Source of the DNA: Escherichia coli
GTDB taxonomy: Bacteria; Pseudomonadota; Gammaproteobacteria; Enterobacterales; Enterobacteriaceae
DNA length: 64,000 nt
Strand: one strand, 5' to 3'
Assembly (NCBI RefSeq): GCF_013315695.1
Contig: NZ_CP054353.1
In this document: in pieces, positions 59,079 to 64,000 of the stretch
Layout: every line of letters begins with the position of its first letter
Position numbering within the stretch: the stretch's first letter is position 1
The notes under the pieces: model-generated
Database searches by the model: none
What the model was told of the DNA's origin: nothing
The model's input: the letters and a program-made list of their open reading frames with translations, nothing else
Program-made: the position numbers and the translations under genes

Positions 59079-59228
59079 CACCTACCCACGCGCCGTTATT
59101 TCCTGACGGCGCAGTAAATTCCTGCCAAATATCGACTCACGTCACATTTTTTTGATCACGATTTGGTCCCTCAAAATGTGAGACGCTTCGATCCTCTTTT
59201 TCTCCCGTTCACCTACTATACGCTTGAA

Positions 59229-59254
59229 GTTGTCCATGATTGTCCATAGACAAC
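59229..59254 (+). promoter_or_regulatory. Candidate operator dyad upstream of the HutC-type regulator / PTS cluster
   Basis: GTTGTCCATG-N6-CATAGACAAC (arms match 9 of 10), 20-45 nt upstream of the regulator start; contains the GT..AC core common in GntR/HutC operators. Confidence 0.4.
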
Positions 59255-59276
59255 TGTAAATGTTCAGGTGCGCGCC

Positions 59277-60023
59277 ATGAAATCATTAAGTAAGTCGTCA
59301 CAAATACCGCTCTATCAACAAGTGGTGGAGTGGATAAGAGAAAGTATTTATACCGGGGATCTGGTGGAAGACGATCGCATTCCTTCGGAATACCAGATTA
59401 TGGATATGCTGGAAGTGAGTCGGGGAACCGTTAAAAAAGCGGTCGCCCAACTGGTAAAAGAAGGCGTGTTGATTCAGGTCCAGGGGAAGGGAACTTTTGT
59501 CAAAAAAGAGAACGTGGCATATCCGTTAGGTGAAGGATTATTGTCATTCGCGGAATCGCTGGAAAGCCAGAAAATACATTTTACCACTGAAGTTATTACG
59601 TCACGGATTGAACCGGCTAATCGTTATGTGGCAGAGAAATTAAGAATAACGCCCGGTCAGGATATTCTTTACCTTGAGCGTTTACGTTCAATTGGTGATG
59701 AAAAAGCGATGCTGATAGAGAACCGTATCAATATTGAGCTATGCCCCGGCATCGTGGAAATCGATTTTAATCAACATAATTTATTTCCAACAATAGAAAG
59801 TTTGTCGCAAAGAAAAATTCGTTACTCGGAAAGTCGCTATGCCGCGCGATTAATTGGTAATGAACGCGGTCATTTTTTAGATATCAGTGAAGATGCACCC
59901 GTTTTGCATCTGGAGCAGTTAGTCTTTTTCTCCCGAGAGTTACCCGTTGAGTTTGGCAACGTCTGGTTAAAAGGAAATAAATATTATCTGGGCACCGTGC
60001 TGCAACGGCGGGAAGTGAGTTAA
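59277..60023 (+). CDS. GntR/HutC-family transcriptional regulator (HTH plus UTRA-type effector domain)
   Basis: ATG at 59277 with AGGTG RBS (ORF track starts at GTG 59268); N-terminal HTH LVEDDRIPSEYQIMDMLEVSRGTVKKAVAQLVKEG. Confidence 0.8.
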   Translation: MKSLSKSSQIPLYQQVVEWIRESIYTGDLVEDDRIPSEYQIMDMLEVSRGTVKKAVAQLVKEGVLIQVQGKGTFVKKENVAYPLGEGLLSFAESLESQKIHFTTEVITSRIEPANRYVAEKLRITPGQDILYLERLRSIGDEKAMLIENRINIELCPGIVEIDFNQHNLFPTIESLSQRKIRYSESRYAARLIGNERGHFLDISEDAPVLHLEQLVFFSRELPVEFGNVWLKGNKYYLGTVLQRREVS

Positions 60024-60047
60024 ATACACTTTTTTATGAGGAATAAA

Positions 60048-60521
60048 ATGCAAGGCATACAGTTTCAGGAAAATTATATTCAACGACTTCCGGCAGGGTT
60101 AAGCGTTGAACAGATCATCCGTCAGTTAGCGCAACCGTTGGTTGCTGCTGAGCTGGTGGTCCCTGATTTTGCCAATCACGTACTGAAACGTGAGGCGACG
60201 TACCCAACGGGGCTGCCTACCGAACCACCGTGCGTCGCCATTCCGCACACGGACCATAAACATGTCCGGCACAATGCAATTGCCGTCGGTATTTTGCCAG
60301 AGCCGGTAGAGTTTGCCGATATGGGCGGCGACCCTGATCCCGTACCTGTCAGGGTGATTTTTTTGCTCGCCTTAAGTGAAAGTAATAAACAATTAAATGC
60401 CCTGGGCTGGATTATGGAGATGATTCAGGATACGCCCTTTATGCGCGCCCTGCTTACGATGGAAACAACAGAAATACACACAGTAATCTTAAACAAAATG
60501 AATGAACGAGGTGAAATATGA
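60048..60521 (+). CDS. PTS EIIA component, galactitol-type (EIIA-2 fold)
   Basis: ATG at 60048 with GAGGA RBS; phospho-His region CVAIPHTDHKHV; overall similar to GatA-type EIIA. Confidence 0.8.
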   Translation: MQGIQFQENYIQRLPAGLSVEQIIRQLAQPLVAAELVVPDFANHVLKREATYPTGLPTEPPCVAIPHTDHKHVRHNAIAVGILPEPVEFADMGGDPDPVPVRVIFLLALSESNKQLNALGWIMEMIQDTPFMRALLTMETTEIHTVILNKMNERGEI

Positions 60522-60799
60522 GTCAAACCATTTTATTTGTCTGCGCCACAGGTATTGCCACATCCACGGCGGTAACAGAAAAAGTCATGGAGTATTGCAA
60601 AGAGCACGGCCTTAACGTCAATTATTCCCAAACCAACGTTGCCTCTTTACCCGGTAATACCGACGGCGTAGCGCTGGTTGTTTCAACGACTAAAGTGCCT
60701 TATGAACTCGACGTCCCGGTAGTTAACGGCTTGCCGATTATTACCGGTATTGGCGAAGAGAAAGTACTGGCGCAAATTGTTTCGATTCTTAAAAAGTAA
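60518..60799 (+). CDS. PTS EIIB component, galactitol-type
   Basis: 93-aa ORF with phospho-Cys motif ILFVCATGIATS near the N-terminus; ATGA overlap with the EIIA gene. Confidence 0.8.
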   Translation: MSQTILFVCATGIATSTAVTEKVMEYCKEHGLNVNYSQTNVASLPGNTDGVALVVSTTKVPYELDVPVVNGLPIITGIGEEKVLAQIVSILKK

Positions 60800-60872
60800 T
60801 TAATAATTAATTCCAACCCACTCCATCAGGCGCTAACGCGAGGTGCGCTCTCGCCTGAAAAAGAGGTTTATT

Positions 60873-62231
60873 ATGAACGATATCGCGCATACCCTCTATA
60901 ATATTGTGCAATATATATTGGGATTTGGCCCCACGGTAATGTTGCCGTTGGTGTTATTTATTCTTGCTCTCTGTTTTAAAGTAAAACCCGCTAAAGCCTT
61001 ACGCTCGTCATTAACAGTCGGCATTGGTTTTGTCGGTATTTATGCCATTTTCGATATTCTTACCAGCAATGTCGGGCCAGCGGCCCAGGCGATGGTTGAA
61101 CGCACCGGAATTAATTTACCGGTGGTGGATTTAGGCTGGCCGCCGCTTTCCGCTATTACATGGGGTTCGCCAATTGCCCCGTTTGTTATTCCCCTGACCA
61201 TTCTGATTAATGTCGCAATGCTGGCGTTAAATAAAACCCGCACCGTTGATGTAGATATGTGGAACTACTGGCATTTTGCCCTTGCCGGTACGCTGGTTTA
61301 TTACAGCACCGGCAGCCTATTCTTTGGTTTGCTGGCGGCCGCGATTGCCGCAGTGGTGGTGCTAAAACTCGCCGACTGGTCTGCGCCACTGGTACAAAAA
61401 TACTTTGGCCTGGAAGGGATCTCATTGCCGACGCTCTCTTCGGTGGTGTTCTTCCCGGTCGGTCTGCTGGTCGACAAAATCATCGACCATATCCCTGGCC
61501 TCAATCGTATTCATATCGACCCGGAAACCGTACAGAAAAAGTTTGGCATCTTCGGCGAACCGATGATGGTTGGCACTATTCTGGGCATTCTGCTCGGCGT
61601 AATTGCCGGATACGATTTCAAAAAAGTCTTGCTGCTTGGCATCAGCATTGGCGGTGTGATGTTCATCCTGCCACGCATGGTTCGCATCCTGATGGAAGGT
61701 TTATTACCGCTGTCTGAAGCCATTAAAAAGTATCTCAATGCCAAATACCCTGACCGTGACGATCTCTATATAGGACTGGATATCGCCGTTGCCGTAGGTA
61801 ACCCGGCGATTATCTCCACCGCCCTGCTGCTGACGCCAATCTCGGTCTTTATCGCGTTTGTCCTCCCAGGTAATGAAGTCCTGCCGCTTGGCGACCTTGC
61901 CAACCTGGCGGTAATGGCGTCGATGATTGCTTTAGCCAGCCGTGGCAATATTTTCCGCACCGTTCTGGCGGCGATCCCGGTGATTATTGCCGACCTGTGG
62001 ATTGCCACTAAAATCGCGCCGTTTATTACCGGAATGGCGAAAGACGTTAACTTCAAATTTGCCGAAGGCTCCAGCGGCCAGGTTTCCAGTTTCCTTGATG
62101 GCGGTAACCCGTTCCGCTTCTGGCTGCTGGAAATCTTCAACGGCAATCTCATCGCCATTGGTCTGGTGCCGGTTATCGCCCTGATACTGTATGGCATTTT
62201 CCGAATGACGCGGAGCACGGTTTATGCCTGA
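60873..62231 (+). CDS. PTS EIIC permease, galactitol (Gat) family
   Basis: ATG at 60873 with AGAGG RBS (ORF track starts at GTG 60843); conserved blocks GPTVMLP, GIGFVGI, VDLGWPP, GEP, GNIFRT shared with GatC-type EIIC. Confidence 0.8.
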   Translation: MNDIAHTLYNIVQYILGFGPTVMLPLVLFILALCFKVKPAKALRSSLTVGIGFVGIYAIFDILTSNVGPAAQAMVERTGINLPVVDLGWPPLSAITWGSPIAPFVIPLTILINVAMLALNKTRTVDVDMWNYWHFALAGTLVYYSTGSLFFGLLAAAIAAVVVLKLADWSAPLVQKYFGLEGISLPTLSSVVFFPVGLLVDKIIDHIPGLNRIHIDPETVQKKFGIFGEPMMVGTILGILLGVIAGYDFKKVLLLGISIGGVMFILPRMVRILMEGLLPLSEAIKKYLNAKYPDRDDLYIGLDIAVAVGNPAIISTALLLTPISVFIAFVLPGNEVLPLGDLANLAVMASMIALASRGNIFRTVLAAIPVIIADLWIATKIAPFITGMAKDVNFKFAEGSSGQVSSFLDGGNPFRFWLLEIFNGNLIAIGLVPVIALILYGIFRMTRSTVYA

Positions 62232-63732
62232 TAACAGCGCAGCTATCGTTATCGATATTGGCACCACCAATTGCAAAGTCACCTGCTTTTCCTGCCTGGA
62301 TGCAACGACGTTGGGCGCGCATAAATTCGTGACGGCAAAACAGATCTCCCCACAGGGCGATGTCGATTTCGATATCGACGTCCTCTGGCAGGAGGTCCGC
62401 CAGGCAATAGCGCAACTGAGCGCCGCTTCGCCGCTGCCGGTCAGGCGGATAAGCATTGCCAGTTTTGGCGAGTCAGGGGTGTTTCTTGACGAGCATGGCG
62501 AGATCCTGACGCCAATGCTGGCATGGTATGACCGCCGCGGTGAAGAGTACCTGGCAACGCTTAGTGAGGCAGACAGTGCGGCGCTTTATGACATCTGCGG
62601 GCTACCGCTGCACAGCAATTACTCTGCCTTCAAAATGCGTTGGTTGCTGGAGCATTATCCACTGCGTAATCGCCGCGGCCTGCGTTGGCTACATGCGCCG
62701 GAAGTACTGCTCTGGCGGCTGACTGGCGAACAGCGTACGGATATCACCTTAGCCAGCCGTACGCTGTGTCTGGACGTGCGTAAAGGCGAATGGTCAGCGA
62801 AAGCGGCGGCGTTGTTACACGTTCCCTGTTCAGCATTTGCGCCATTGGTGCAGCCAGGCGAGCACGCCGGATGGGTCAGCGAGTCGCTCTGCAAAACGCT
62901 TGGGTTCTTGCAACCGGTCAGCGTGACGCTGGCCGGGCATGACCATATGGTGGGTGCGCGGGCGTTGCAGATGACGCCGGGCGATATCCTTAACTCGACG
63001 GGCACCACAGAAGGCATTCTGCAACTGGATACACAACCGACGCTGGATGAACAGGCCAAACGTGACAAGCTGGCAAACGGCTGTTATTCGCTTGCAAACC
63101 AGTTCACCCTGTTTGCGTCGCTGCCGGTGGGCGGTTTCGCTCTGGAGTGGCTGCGCAACACGTTCCGGCTAACCGATGAGGAGATCGCCGCATCACTTAC
63201 TCGCGGACATGCGGATTACCTGGCGGGGAACTGGTCGCTCGATGACATTCCCGTTTTTATTCCGCATCTTCGCGGTTCGGGTTCGCCCTATAAAAATCGC
63301 CATACCCGAGGATTATTTTATGGGCTTGGCGATACGTTAAATATCGATATGTTAATTGCCAGCGTCTCACTGGGATTAACCATGGAATTTGCCAACTGCT
63401 TCGCCTGTTTTAATGTGCCCGGCACCAGCGCGTTAAAAGTGATAGGTCCGGCAACCCATAATCCCCTTTGGCTGCAATTAAAGGCGGATATTTTACAGCG
63501 TCCGGTTGAAGCAATTGCATTTAACGAGGCGGTTTCTGTCGGAGCATTATTAACCGCCGCACCGGATATTCCACCGCCGCAAGTCACCATAGCCCAACGT
63601 TTGTTACCGAATCGGGCGAGATACCATCAATTACAGCGTTATCAGCACAAATGGAAAAGCTGGTATCAGTTGAAATTACAGCAAGAAGGCGTGATGCCAT
63701 TACATCATCGGGAGGAGCACTATGTTGAGTAA
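62224..63732 (+). CDS. FGGY-family carbohydrate kinase (rhamnulokinase/fuculokinase-like)
   Basis: 502-aa ORF; N-terminal phosphate-binding loop AIVIDIGTTNCKV and the FGGY second motif region AGHDHMVGA; overlaps the EIIC stop by 8 nt. Confidence 0.75.
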   Translation: MPDNSAAIVIDIGTTNCKVTCFSCLDATTLGAHKFVTAKQISPQGDVDFDIDVLWQEVRQAIAQLSAASPLPVRRISIASFGESGVFLDEHGEILTPMLAWYDRRGEEYLATLSEADSAALYDICGLPLHSNYSAFKMRWLLEHYPLRNRRGLRWLHAPEVLLWRLTGEQRTDITLASRTLCLDVRKGEWSAKAAALLHVPCSAFAPLVQPGEHAGWVSESLCKTLGFLQPVSVTLAGHDHMVGARALQMTPGDILNSTGTTEGILQLDTQPTLDEQAKRDKLANGCYSLANQFTLFASLPVGGFALEWLRNTFRLTDEEIAASLTRGHADYLAGNWSLDDIPVFIPHLRGSGSPYKNRHTRGLFYGLGDTLNIDMLIASVSLGLTMEFANCFACFNVPGTSALKVIGPATHNPLWLQLKADILQRPVEAIAFNEAVSVGALLTAAPDIPPPQVTIAQRLLPNRARYHQLQRYQHKWKSWYQLKLQQEGVMPLHHREEHYVE

Positions 63733-63991
63733 AACCGTGGAGGTCAGAAACAGTACTGGCCTGCATGCACGTCCGGCGGCCTGTCTGGCGAAAGCCGCCA
63801 AAAAATATAGCTGTAAAGTGACGCTGCATTATGAAGGTAATGATATTAATGCCACCAGCATGATGAATATTATGCGCGCCGGAATAAAAGGCGGAAAAAC
63901 GGTGGAAATACGCTGCGAAGGTGATGATGAAAACGAGGCAATACAAACTCTCACTACCTTATTTCGCGACCGCTTCGGTGAAGCTGAATAA
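63722..63991 (+). CDS. HPr-like phosphocarrier protein
   Basis: 89-aa ORF with the HPr active-site context NSTGLHARPAA (phospho-His); overlaps the kinase 3' end by 11 nt. Confidence 0.75.
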   Translation: MLSKTVEVRNSTGLHARPAACLAKAAKKYSCKVTLHYEGNDINATSMMNIMRAGIKGGKTVEIRCEGDDENEAIQTLTTLFRDRFGEAE

Positions 63992-64000
63992 TTAACTGAT

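Follow-up and report, generated by a model that had tools for sequence, protein, structure and literature searches.

A putative ketose-catabolic operon with a Gat-type PTS, an FGGY kinase and a class II aldolase occupies the nikR-yhhJ slot in a subset of Escherichia coli genomes

The DNA analysed here, a 64,000-nucleotide (nt) stretch of an Escherichia coli chromosome (contig NZ_CP054353.1; hereafter the window), ends in an operon that encodes a sugar phosphotransferase system (PTS). Following nikABCDE-nikR, six intact genes on the + strand (59277-63991) specify a HutC-type regulator, separate PTS components EIIA, EIIB and EIIC, a kinase of the FGGY family and an HPr-family phosphocarrier (Table 1; gene starts are those of the PGAP annotation of a 100%-identical genome). 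A first-pass annotation, made from the letters of the window alone, had described these genes as a tightly packed unit downstream of nikR, and so they are: neighbouring genes overlap in three places (4 nt for EIIA/EIIB, 8 nt for EIIC/kinase, 11 nt for kinase/HPr), the peptides it had singled out are all found (CVAIPHTD in EIIA, FVCATGIATS in EIIB, GLHARPAA in HPr), and a scan against NCBIfam profiles upholds the family assignment of each of the six. It had also supposed that the operon runs off the edge of the window and that downstream enzymes would lie past position 64000. It does run off, but by one gene only, the HPr gene being complete inside the window. In NZ_OZ547117, which is identical to the window across 59100-64000, exactly one further operon gene follows, starting 23 nt past the window end and encoding a class II ketose-bisphosphate aldolase. 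The operon therefore comprises seven genes: repressor, EIIA, EIIB, EIIC, FGGY kinase, HPr and class II aldolase. As we argue below, its likely though far from assured task is to phosphorylate a ketose twice, in series, and then to cleave it.

Among the seven there is no dehydrogenase, isomerase, hydrolase or Enzyme I, and neither a GatD-type dehydrogenase nor GatZ is encoded in the operon. Because Enzyme I is missing, the earlier description of the cluster as self-contained was slightly overstated: the general PTS is still needed, and the operon is not fully insulated from it. No family was matched in an Rfam scan of the region. Base composition is uneven inside the operon, with a GC content of 42.6% in the regulator gene, 45.4% in that for EIIB, 46.7% for HPr, 50.6% for EIIC and 54.5% for the kinase, and of 57% in the adjoining nik operon.

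Table 1. Genes of the operon and predicted control elements upstream of it. Positions are those of the window unless another accession is given; CRP, cAMP receptor protein; aa, amino acids.
Feature	Position	Strand	Basis
Distal CRP-like site (ATCGACTCACGTCACA)	59131..59146		Phylogenetic footprint; predicted function
Proximal CRP-like site (TGTGAGACGCTTCGAT)	59177..59192		TGTGA half conserved in every aligned species
-10-like hexamer TACTAT	59214..59219	+	Footprint; TATTAT or TATCAT in relatives
Putative operator of HutC-type repressor, 28 nt, AGTTGTCCATGATTGTCCATAGACAACT	59228..59255		Footprint
GntR/HutC-family transcriptional regulator, 248 aa, first gene of the operon	59277..60023	+	Profile matches
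PTS EIIA, PTS_EIIA_2 type, 157 aa	60048..60521	+	AIPH phosphorylation motif
PTS EIIB, GatB-like, 93 aa	60518..60799	+	N-terminal Cys, FVCATG
PTS EIIC, galactitol (Gat) family, 452 aa	60873..62231	+	TIGR00827
FGGY-family kinase, distinct subfamily, 502 aa	62224..63732	+	FGGY profiles
HPr-family phosphocarrier, 89 aa	63722..63991	+	His15, Arg17, Ser46
Spacer of 31 nt, first 9 nt in window	63992..64000	+	100%-identical genome
Class II ketose-bisphosphate aldolase, 286 aa	NZ_OZ547117, L001:18924-19784 (start equivalent to position 64023)	+	Seventh and last operon gene

The region is single-copy and chromosomal in 1637 of 5426 complete E. coli genomes, and at least 80% of it is present in 1635 of these carriers, which include O157:H7, O145, UM146, SMS-3-5 and Nissle 1917 (locus tags ECs_4349-4355 in Sakai and ECOLIN_RS19900-19930 in Nissle). 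The slot between nikR and yhhJ is filled in K-12 by rhsB-yhhH-yrhC-yhhI, with rhsB beside nikR (PMC2935791), and this K-12-type junction is found in at least 2103 genomes. The first-pass annotation had placed an Rhs element at this point in K-12 and suggested a strain-variable catabolic module, and on both counts the genomes agree with it. The operon occupies the same slot in Escherichia whittamii, in a strain of an Escherichia cryptic clade and in Citrobacter amalonaticus. Between the window-type allele and that of Sakai, synonymous divergence (dS) of the seven genes (0.09-0.24) resembles that of nikA (0.21) and nikR (0.17), which, together with the shared slot in E. whittamii and Citrobacter, argues that the operon is old and has been maintained and that the K-12 state is derived. 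In the same comparison the ratio of nonsynonymous to synonymous divergence (dN/dS) lies between 0.010 and 0.21 for the seven genes (regulator 0.079, EIIA 0.088, EIIC 0.010, kinase 0.050; HPr, at 0.21, is the highest and still constrained), and Sakai carries no stop codons in them. All seven are under purifying selection, and the kinase and HPr genes are intact and not pseudogenes.

Downstream of the aldolase gene in NZ_OZ547117 lies a hicBA toxin-antitoxin pair on the opposite strand, followed by yhhJ-rbbA. The window-type strain and O157:H7 Sakai both have this pair (L001:19834-20465) between the aldolase gene and yhhJ, whereas Nissle 1917, E. whittamii and C. amalonaticus have none there, which makes it a later insertion. 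The operon locus of the cryptic-clade strain likewise lacks it. On the other side of the nik genes in Sakai, upstream of acpT-nikA, the yhhT-acpT interval (L012:2681-17697) is filled by a block of about 15 kb, ECs_4324-4341, with genes for acyl-carrier proteins, ketoacyl synthases and acyltransferases; the window-type strain and Nissle lack this block, and there acpT comes straight after yhhT.

What kind of PTS is this? EIIC matches the EIIC-GAT model TIGR00827 over 406 of 407 profile positions (476 bits, E 7e-143), a score that falls below the curated cut-off of 542 bits marking true galactitol-type subfamily members. An orthologue carries the Pfam EIIC-GAT domain, and PF03611/TIGR00827 places the protein in the Gat family (TC 4.A.5), as does the presence of a separate EIIA (PTS_EIIA_2, active His within AIPH) and EIIB (PTS_IIB, active Cys within FVCATG). 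The top NCBIfam matches of EIIA and EIIB are GatA and GatB, both under cut-off. That the operon encodes no dehydrogenase argues against a polyol as the PTS substrate. EIIC is the most conserved component, with 89% identity in Salmonella, 77% in Listeria immobilis and 76% in Enterococcus. Such conservation across phyla is unusually high for a membrane permease and suggests that the gene set has spread horizontally as a cassette. In the L. immobilis locus (EIIC at L003:6625-8004) the kinase is just 36% identical to that of E. coli, and the cassette adjoins TraG-like and integrase fragments. The regulator has full-length matches to the PhnF, HutC and TreR models of the HutC subfamily, all below equivalog cut-offs; its Salmonella orthologue combines the Pfam domains GntR (PF00392) and UTRA (PF07702), as members of that subfamily do.

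The phosphocarrier belongs squarely to the HPr family (103.5 bits against TIGR01003, cut-off 47.9), and His15 and Arg17 are invariant in the alignment. It is only 33% identical to K-12 PtsH and about 46-47% identical to its counterpart in Salmonella, and it scores higher against Firmicute-type HPr models (76.7 bits) than against the enterobacterial PtsH model (52 bits). Among cassette loci of other species (see below), an HPr gene is present in every complete Enterobacterales locus of types I and II and in some Bacillaceae, and absent from those of Lactobacillales, Selenomonadales and Gilliamella. The protein may plausibly serve as a dedicated adaptor between the Enzyme I of the host and a fast-evolving EIIA; any insulation from the general PTS by a private HPr, as the first-pass annotation suggested, would be incomplete.

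The kinase is a bona fide FGGY protein that sits outside the characterised specificities. FGGY_N and FGGY_C (PF00370 and PF02782) are found in a 98%-identical protein and in every homologue, and in NCBIfam it matches FGGY models only, all far under their equivalog cut-offs (XylB, the best, 143.5 bits versus 380; FucK 116 versus 471; RhaB 58 versus 528), so that it joins none of the XylB, GlpK, FucK, RhaB, AraB, LsrK or GntK groups. The best solved-structure match is a glycerol kinase, at just 89 bits. Its homologues form two sets, enterobacterial orthologues with 60-98% identity and a broad set with 32-40%. Across 12 members of the family the motifs DIGTTNxK, S(F/V)GExG, HSNYS, ASRT, AGHDHM, LNSTGTTEG, IPHxxGxG and VIGPAxxN..WLQLKAD are invariant, so that the elements for ATP binding and catalysis, including the catalytic Asp in AGHDHM, are preserved. 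Neighbour-joining with 50 bootstraps recovers a clade of the PTS-linked kinases (support 100%), and these together with the cassette kinases of Actinobacteria group with K-12 FucK and RhaB, again with 100% support. A second kinase found in the actinobacterial loci groups with XylB (98%). FucK and RhaB phosphorylate C1 of 2-ketoses; XylB phosphorylates the terminal carbon and is thus an omega-kinase. The position of the glycerol-binding Arg83 of GlpK is Gly in the cassette kinases. We also considered whether HPr might control the kinase, as it does GlpK in Gram-positive bacteria, and rejected this in that form, as the residue that HPr phosphorylates in Enterococcus GlpK, His232, is replaced by Lys. 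Residues H130, R179, H241 and H348 are specific to the family. We propose that the enzyme is a ketose-phosphate kinase.

The aldolase (class II, family PF01116) scores 556 bits against NF005943 (cut-off 364) and stays well below the cut-offs of the GatY (239 versus 383 bits) and KbaY (182 versus 542 bits) models, so that it is a member of neither subfamily. All five cassette aldolases scanned against NCBIfam pass the NF005943 cut-off (393-556 bits). AgaY is the best solved-structure match (168 bits), and the HLDHG, VHG and IHGGSG segments align with its D82/H83, H180 and H208, so that the Asp-His pair and the zinc-binding His residues are kept. R255 aligns with R257 of the DPR motif of KbaY; the Asp-Pro of that motif is not kept, and non-enteric cassette members have Lys in place of Arg, leaving a basic residue at this position in 7 of 7 cassette members aligned. 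The Arg of the DPR motif binds the distal phosphate, as is known from E. coli fructose-bisphosphate aldolase and from AgaY.

We also looked at other species, scanning one genome of each and annotating 80 loci with our own open reading frame (ORF) caller and blastp. The kinase adjoins the aldolase in 78 of the 80, both exceptions being at contig ends, and a Gat-type PTS is present in 63. Three arrangements can be told apart. Type I loci, without a dehydrogenase, number 42: in 20 Enterobacterales the order is regulator, EIIA, EIIB, EIIC, kinase and then HPr and aldolase in either order, and in the 22 others (Enterococcus, Lactobacillales, Selenomonadales, Coriobacteriia and so on) it is mostly regulator, aldolase, EIIA, EIIB, EIIC, kinase. 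Type II (21 loci, in Pantoea, Erwinia, Raoultella, Serratia, Gilliamella and Bacillaceae) has an extra Zn-dependent dehydrogenase, mostly beside the kinase. Type III (17 loci, all in Actinobacteria) lacks the PTS, and nearly all of its loci carry at least one further FGGY ORF. Where we looked closely, in three type III loci, the second kinase is XylB-like in all three (309-330 bits to TIGR01312), and one has an RbsB-type ABC transporter and another ABC-like ORFs. Across the 80 loci we found no other recurring gene beside the cassette, such as a hydrolase or isomerase, that might hint at the substrate, and in none of them a GatZ/KbaZ-like partner gene.

Measured against E. coli, the components diverge at very different rates: EIIC is slowest, followed by the aldolase, EIIB and the regulator, and EIIA, the kinase and HPr are fastest (the kinase is 63% identical in Salmonella and 36-38% in Firmicutes; HPr is 47% identical in Salmonella). 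A mosaic origin might have explained the low identities of kinase, EIIA and HPr; we reject it because the same rank recurs in 20 taxa, which points to rate heterogeneity. Individual loci have peculiarities of their own. In Pantoea rwandensis (L052/L008) the aldolase and regulator are 82% and 69% identical to those of E. coli, EIIA, EIIB, EIIC and kinase belong to the dehydrogenase-linked clade (33-58% identity), and the genes are arranged as EIIA, EIIB, EIIC, kinase and dehydrogenase, then regulator, aldolase, HPr, SurE and dehydrogenase, so that modules appear to have recombined. In the Enterococcus avium group (E. raffinosus, E. malodoratus and E. avium; L045-L047) a second class II aldolase comes directly after the cassette, together with a Mga/PRD-type regulator; two of the three loci add a dehydrogenase, and the whole forms a larger sugar or polyol island. 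Four type II loci of Bacillaceae (L072, L074, L080 and L081) have two adjacent EIIB genes and two or three Zn-dependent dehydrogenases, which hints at more than one polyol substrate.

Control of the operon can be approached through its upstream region, for which we aligned 13 Enterobacterales upstream regions plus those of Salmonella and Citrobacter. Part of this footprint is the putative operator, with TTGTxxAT repeats and the palindrome TTGTC-CATA-GACAA; in 18 of 19 Enterobacterales loci it hardly varies, in contrast to the diverging sequence on either side. A Shine-Dalgarno sequence lies 3' of it, ahead of the ATG at 59277. Related repeats, TTGTACAT/TTGTATATAGACAA, occur upstream of the cassette in Selenomonas, Enterococcus, Anaeromonas and Gilliamella, from which it follows that regulator and operator have travelled with the cassette. 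If transcription starts about 7 nt past the -10-like hexamer, as we assume, the proximal CRP-like site would be centred about 41.5 nt upstream of the start. No conserved -35 element is seen in the aligned regions, and a generic promoter and terminator scan did no better than on shuffled sequence. The distal CRP-like site reads TGTGA-N6-TCACA in most genera, and its 3' half, TCACA, is retained in Escherichia. Escherichia and Citrobacter have a degenerate 5' half (ATCGA or CACGA), the site being near consensus in Salmonella, Klebsiella, Rahnella and others; in Escherichia this may mean weaker catabolite control or weaker expression. The HutC-type regulator thus probably represses the operon at the conserved putative operator, which would overlap the transcription start, and expression probably also depends on cAMP-CRP. 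A repressor site over the start combined with a CRP site near -41.5 is the design expected of a catabolic operon.

We propose that the operon encodes an inducible catabolic pathway that runs from a ketose, via PTS uptake, to a ketose phosphate, from there by way of the FGGY kinase to a ketose bisphosphate, and through the aldolase to trioses, and we regard this as probable, albeit with considerable room for doubt. Enzyme I of the general PTS would phosphorylate the operon HPr, which would pass the phosphate on to EIIA and EIIB; the Gat-type EIIC would import the sugar as its terminal (omega) phosphate ester; the kinase would add a second phosphate from ATP, probably at C1; and the aldolase would split the bisphosphate into dihydroxyacetone phosphate (DHAP) and glyceraldehyde-3-phosphate, with no other enzyme needed. 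Gene content, intactness and selection, the linkage of kinase and aldolase, the motifs and the upstream footprint are observed; we infer the succession of steps, the carbon that receives the phosphate, the part played by HPr and the nature of the sugar, which would be a ketose and most simply a ketohexose. The first-pass annotation had seen two ways to account for a kinase beside a PTS, a second phosphorylation or a non-PTS ketose intermediate. The former is now favoured, given the class II aldolase downstream and a kinase-aldolase pair that is conserved across phyla in company with either a PTS or a further kinase. That two phosphorylations would occur in series is suggested by the Actinobacteria, which lack the PTS and carry a further FGGY kinase in nearly all loci; by the dehydrogenase-bearing variants, which mirror the galactitol pathway yet have their own kinase; and by the retention of the distal anion-binding residue in the aldolase.

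Would a different division of labour serve as well? In a fructolysis-like scheme the PTS would make a ketose-1-phosphate, the aldolase would free DHAP and an unphosphorylated aldehyde such as glyceraldehyde, and the kinase would act as a triokinase. Glycerol kinases, the best solved-structure matches of the kinase, accept glyceraldehyde; enzymes of family PF01116 such as IolJ and YdjI cleave monophosphates, with YdjI among the solved-structure matches of our aldolase; and the two-kinase actinobacterial locus is compatible with this scheme too. Yet the Gly in place of GlpK Arg83, the grouping of the kinase with FucK/RhaB rather than GlpK and the basic residue at the distal-phosphate position in all seven aligned aldolases make it, in our view, unlikely. 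The kinase might alternatively provide a second entry route, parallel to the PTS, for sugar that is free inside the cell following dephosphorylation or non-PTS uptake. This was one of the two options raised at the outset, and parallel kinases exist for other PTS sugars (fructokinase, mannokinase). In that case, however, no enzyme would supply the bisphosphate on which members of the aldolase family normally depend, and adjacency of kinase and aldolase in 78 of 80 loci speaks for steps that follow one another, so that we give this arrangement little credence.

Two further readings concern the identity of the system rather than the order of its steps. The operon might duplicate tagKTH/gatYZ or gatYZABCD as a PTS pathway for D-tagatose or a galactitol-like hexitol. 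Its EII components are Gat-type and its aldolase reaches 239 bits against the GatY subfamily model; it lacks a GatD-type dehydrogenase and GatZ, and its kinase is FGGY, whereas TagK is of the PfkB type. The succession of PTS, kinase and class II aldolase is the known logic of tagatose use, but Nissle, whose operon is intact, is Tag-negative once its ABC-type tag cluster is deleted (PMC9720028), and we consider such duplication very unlikely. Finally, the operon could be silenced and serve no present purpose in E. coli, as a cryptic remnant. In favour of this, the Salmonella orthologue is described as an AT-rich island repressed by H-NS (PMC3604774), the distal CRP half-site is degenerate in Escherichia and no phenotype is on record. 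Strong purifying selection on all seven genes with dS like that of flanking core genes, intactness of the region in 1635 of 1637 carriers, and conservation of operator and motifs across genera render a remnant highly improbable.

None of this puts serial phosphorylation of a ketose beyond doubt, and several points weigh against it. The literature searched yielded no biochemical or genetic data on any cassette member. The basic residue of the aldolase would fit a distal carboxylate or sulfonate too. The kinase diverges fastest among the enzymes, with 36-38% identity where EIIC has 63-77%, which could mean a looser or different role, and in the neighbour-joining tree, with its 50 bootstraps, support is only 48% for placing the kinases of Actinobacteria within the cassette clade. 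We know of no FGGY kinase shown to act on a sugar phosphate. Lastly, the Salmonella orthologue is reported to be repressed by H-NS (PMC3604774), so that the operon may be silent under laboratory conditions.

Comparison with known systems places the operon near several without identifying it with any. In fruBKA, too, a PTS is paired with an HPr-like carrier, in this case the FPr domain of FruB, and with a kinase of its own, FruK, that turns the PTS product into a 1,6-bisphosphate for a class II aldolase; fruBKA differs in its fructose-family EII, its PfkB-family kinase, an HPr fused to EIIA and its reliance on the housekeeping FbaA, which is not encoded in the operon. FucK and RhaB, the nearest K-12 relatives of the kinase in the tree, share with it the GHD/SHD catalytic motif and are likewise ketose 1-kinases followed by a DHAP-releasing aldolase (FucA or RhaD), but they act on free 6-deoxy-ketoses and their partner aldolases come from the unrelated PF00596 family. 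The D-tagatose PTS pathway of Klebsiella oxytoca and Salmonella (tagKTH with gatYZ; a related cluster is found in Bacillus licheniformis) has the PfkB-type TagK, an aldolase that needs GatZ and the phosphocarrier TagH, where this operon has an FGGY kinase, a stand-alone NF005943 aldolase and Gat-type EII. What the two would share is the succession of steps in the tagatose pathway: uptake by a PTS as a ketose monophosphate, conversion to the 1,6-bisphosphate by a dedicated kinase and cleavage by a class II aldolase (PMC9720028). With gatYZABCD the operon has in common Gat-family EIIA, EIIB and EIIC and a class II ketose-bisphosphate aldolase, ending in DHAP and glyceraldehyde-3-phosphate, at identities of 25% for EIIA, 37% for EIIB and 36% for the aldolase; for its second phosphorylation the gat pathway draws on PfkA (PMC9720028), whereas a kinase gene is part of this operon. 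Closer analogues of gat are the cassette variants of other genera with a Zn-dependent dehydrogenase. The tag cluster of Nissle and other B2 strains is also accessory, converts a rare ketohexose to a 1,6-bisphosphate and has its own class II aldolase, differing in ABC uptake, a sugar kinase of about 320 aa and PfkA as the source of the second phosphate (PMC9720028); it lies at the accC-yhdT locus in 93% of B2 and coexists with this operon in Nissle. With an FGGY kinase, an NF005943 aldolase, neither GatZ nor GatD, and every specificity-level cut-off missed, the operon may therefore work like tagKTH/gatYZ and fruBKA while being a member of neither, its possible new element being an FGGY kinase acting on a sugar phosphate.

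The closest relative by sequence is the orthologous seven-gene set STM3779-STM3785 of Salmonella enterica (identity 82% for the regulator, 60% for EIIA, 84% for EIIB, 89% for EIIC, 63% for the kinase, 89% for the aldolase and 47% for HPr), which lies at another chromosomal site with aldolase and HPr in swapped order and a lower GC content, and is equally uncharacterised. It has been described as a complete PTS of unknown specificity with regulator and aldolase, in an H-NS-repressed island (PMC3604774). A RelE/HTH pair flanks this island. In E. coli, c4276-c4280 of CFT073, listed among uncharacterised metabolic gene sets (PMC2831201), are probably this cluster, and Sakai ECs4354 surfaces in the literature only in stress transcriptomes.

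Which sugar, then, might enter? The literature searched contains neither a substrate assignment for the cassette nor a characterised operon with which it could be equated, and the first-pass view that the substrate is not predictable still holds, except that a lack of dehydrogenase, isomerase and hydrolase in the operon narrows the choice to a ketose. Nissle without its ABC-type tag cluster neither grows on nor consumes D-tagatose, aerobically or anaerobically (PMC9720028); since the operon is intact in this strain, D-tagatose is unlikely, although the operon may simply not have been induced. Twelve carbon sources support growth of Nissle but not of MG1655; four of them, D-psicose, D-arabinose, lactitol and raffinose, were left without a gene cluster in that study (PMC7924626). 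K-12 does not grow on D-allulose unless alsE is overexpressed (PMC12216980). D-psicose is accordingly a lead, resting on two strains: Nissle, which has the operon and grows, and MG1655, for which neither is true. A paper on sulfoglycolysis is not about this cluster, and the psicose locus of Klebsiella, which relies on a permease and not on this PTS, was set aside. Our most specific suggestion, a doubtful one, is that the kinase is a ketose-6-phosphate 1-kinase and the operon a route for a rare ketohexose (for example D-psicose/D-allulose) in O157:H7, extraintestinal E. coli, Nissle and Salmonella subspecies I. If so, it would be, to our knowledge, the first FGGY member to act on a sugar phosphate.

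K-12 and other A/B1-type strains are without the operon, whereas O157:H7, extraintestinal E. coli, Nissle and Salmonella subspecies I have it. It thus sets laboratory E. coli apart metabolically from the lineages responsible for most serious disease, and the present analysis turns an "unknown PTS" into a specific three-step pathway, as proposed, with a defined promoter and a putative operator. D-allulose is now a dietary sweetener. Knowing the sugar would add a nutrient niche to the biology of these bacteria and might matter for gut colonisation and for what becomes of rare-sugar sweeteners, and the operon itself would offer a test both of an FGGY kinase acting on a sugar phosphate and of a second HPr serving as adaptor for a horizontally spreading PTS.

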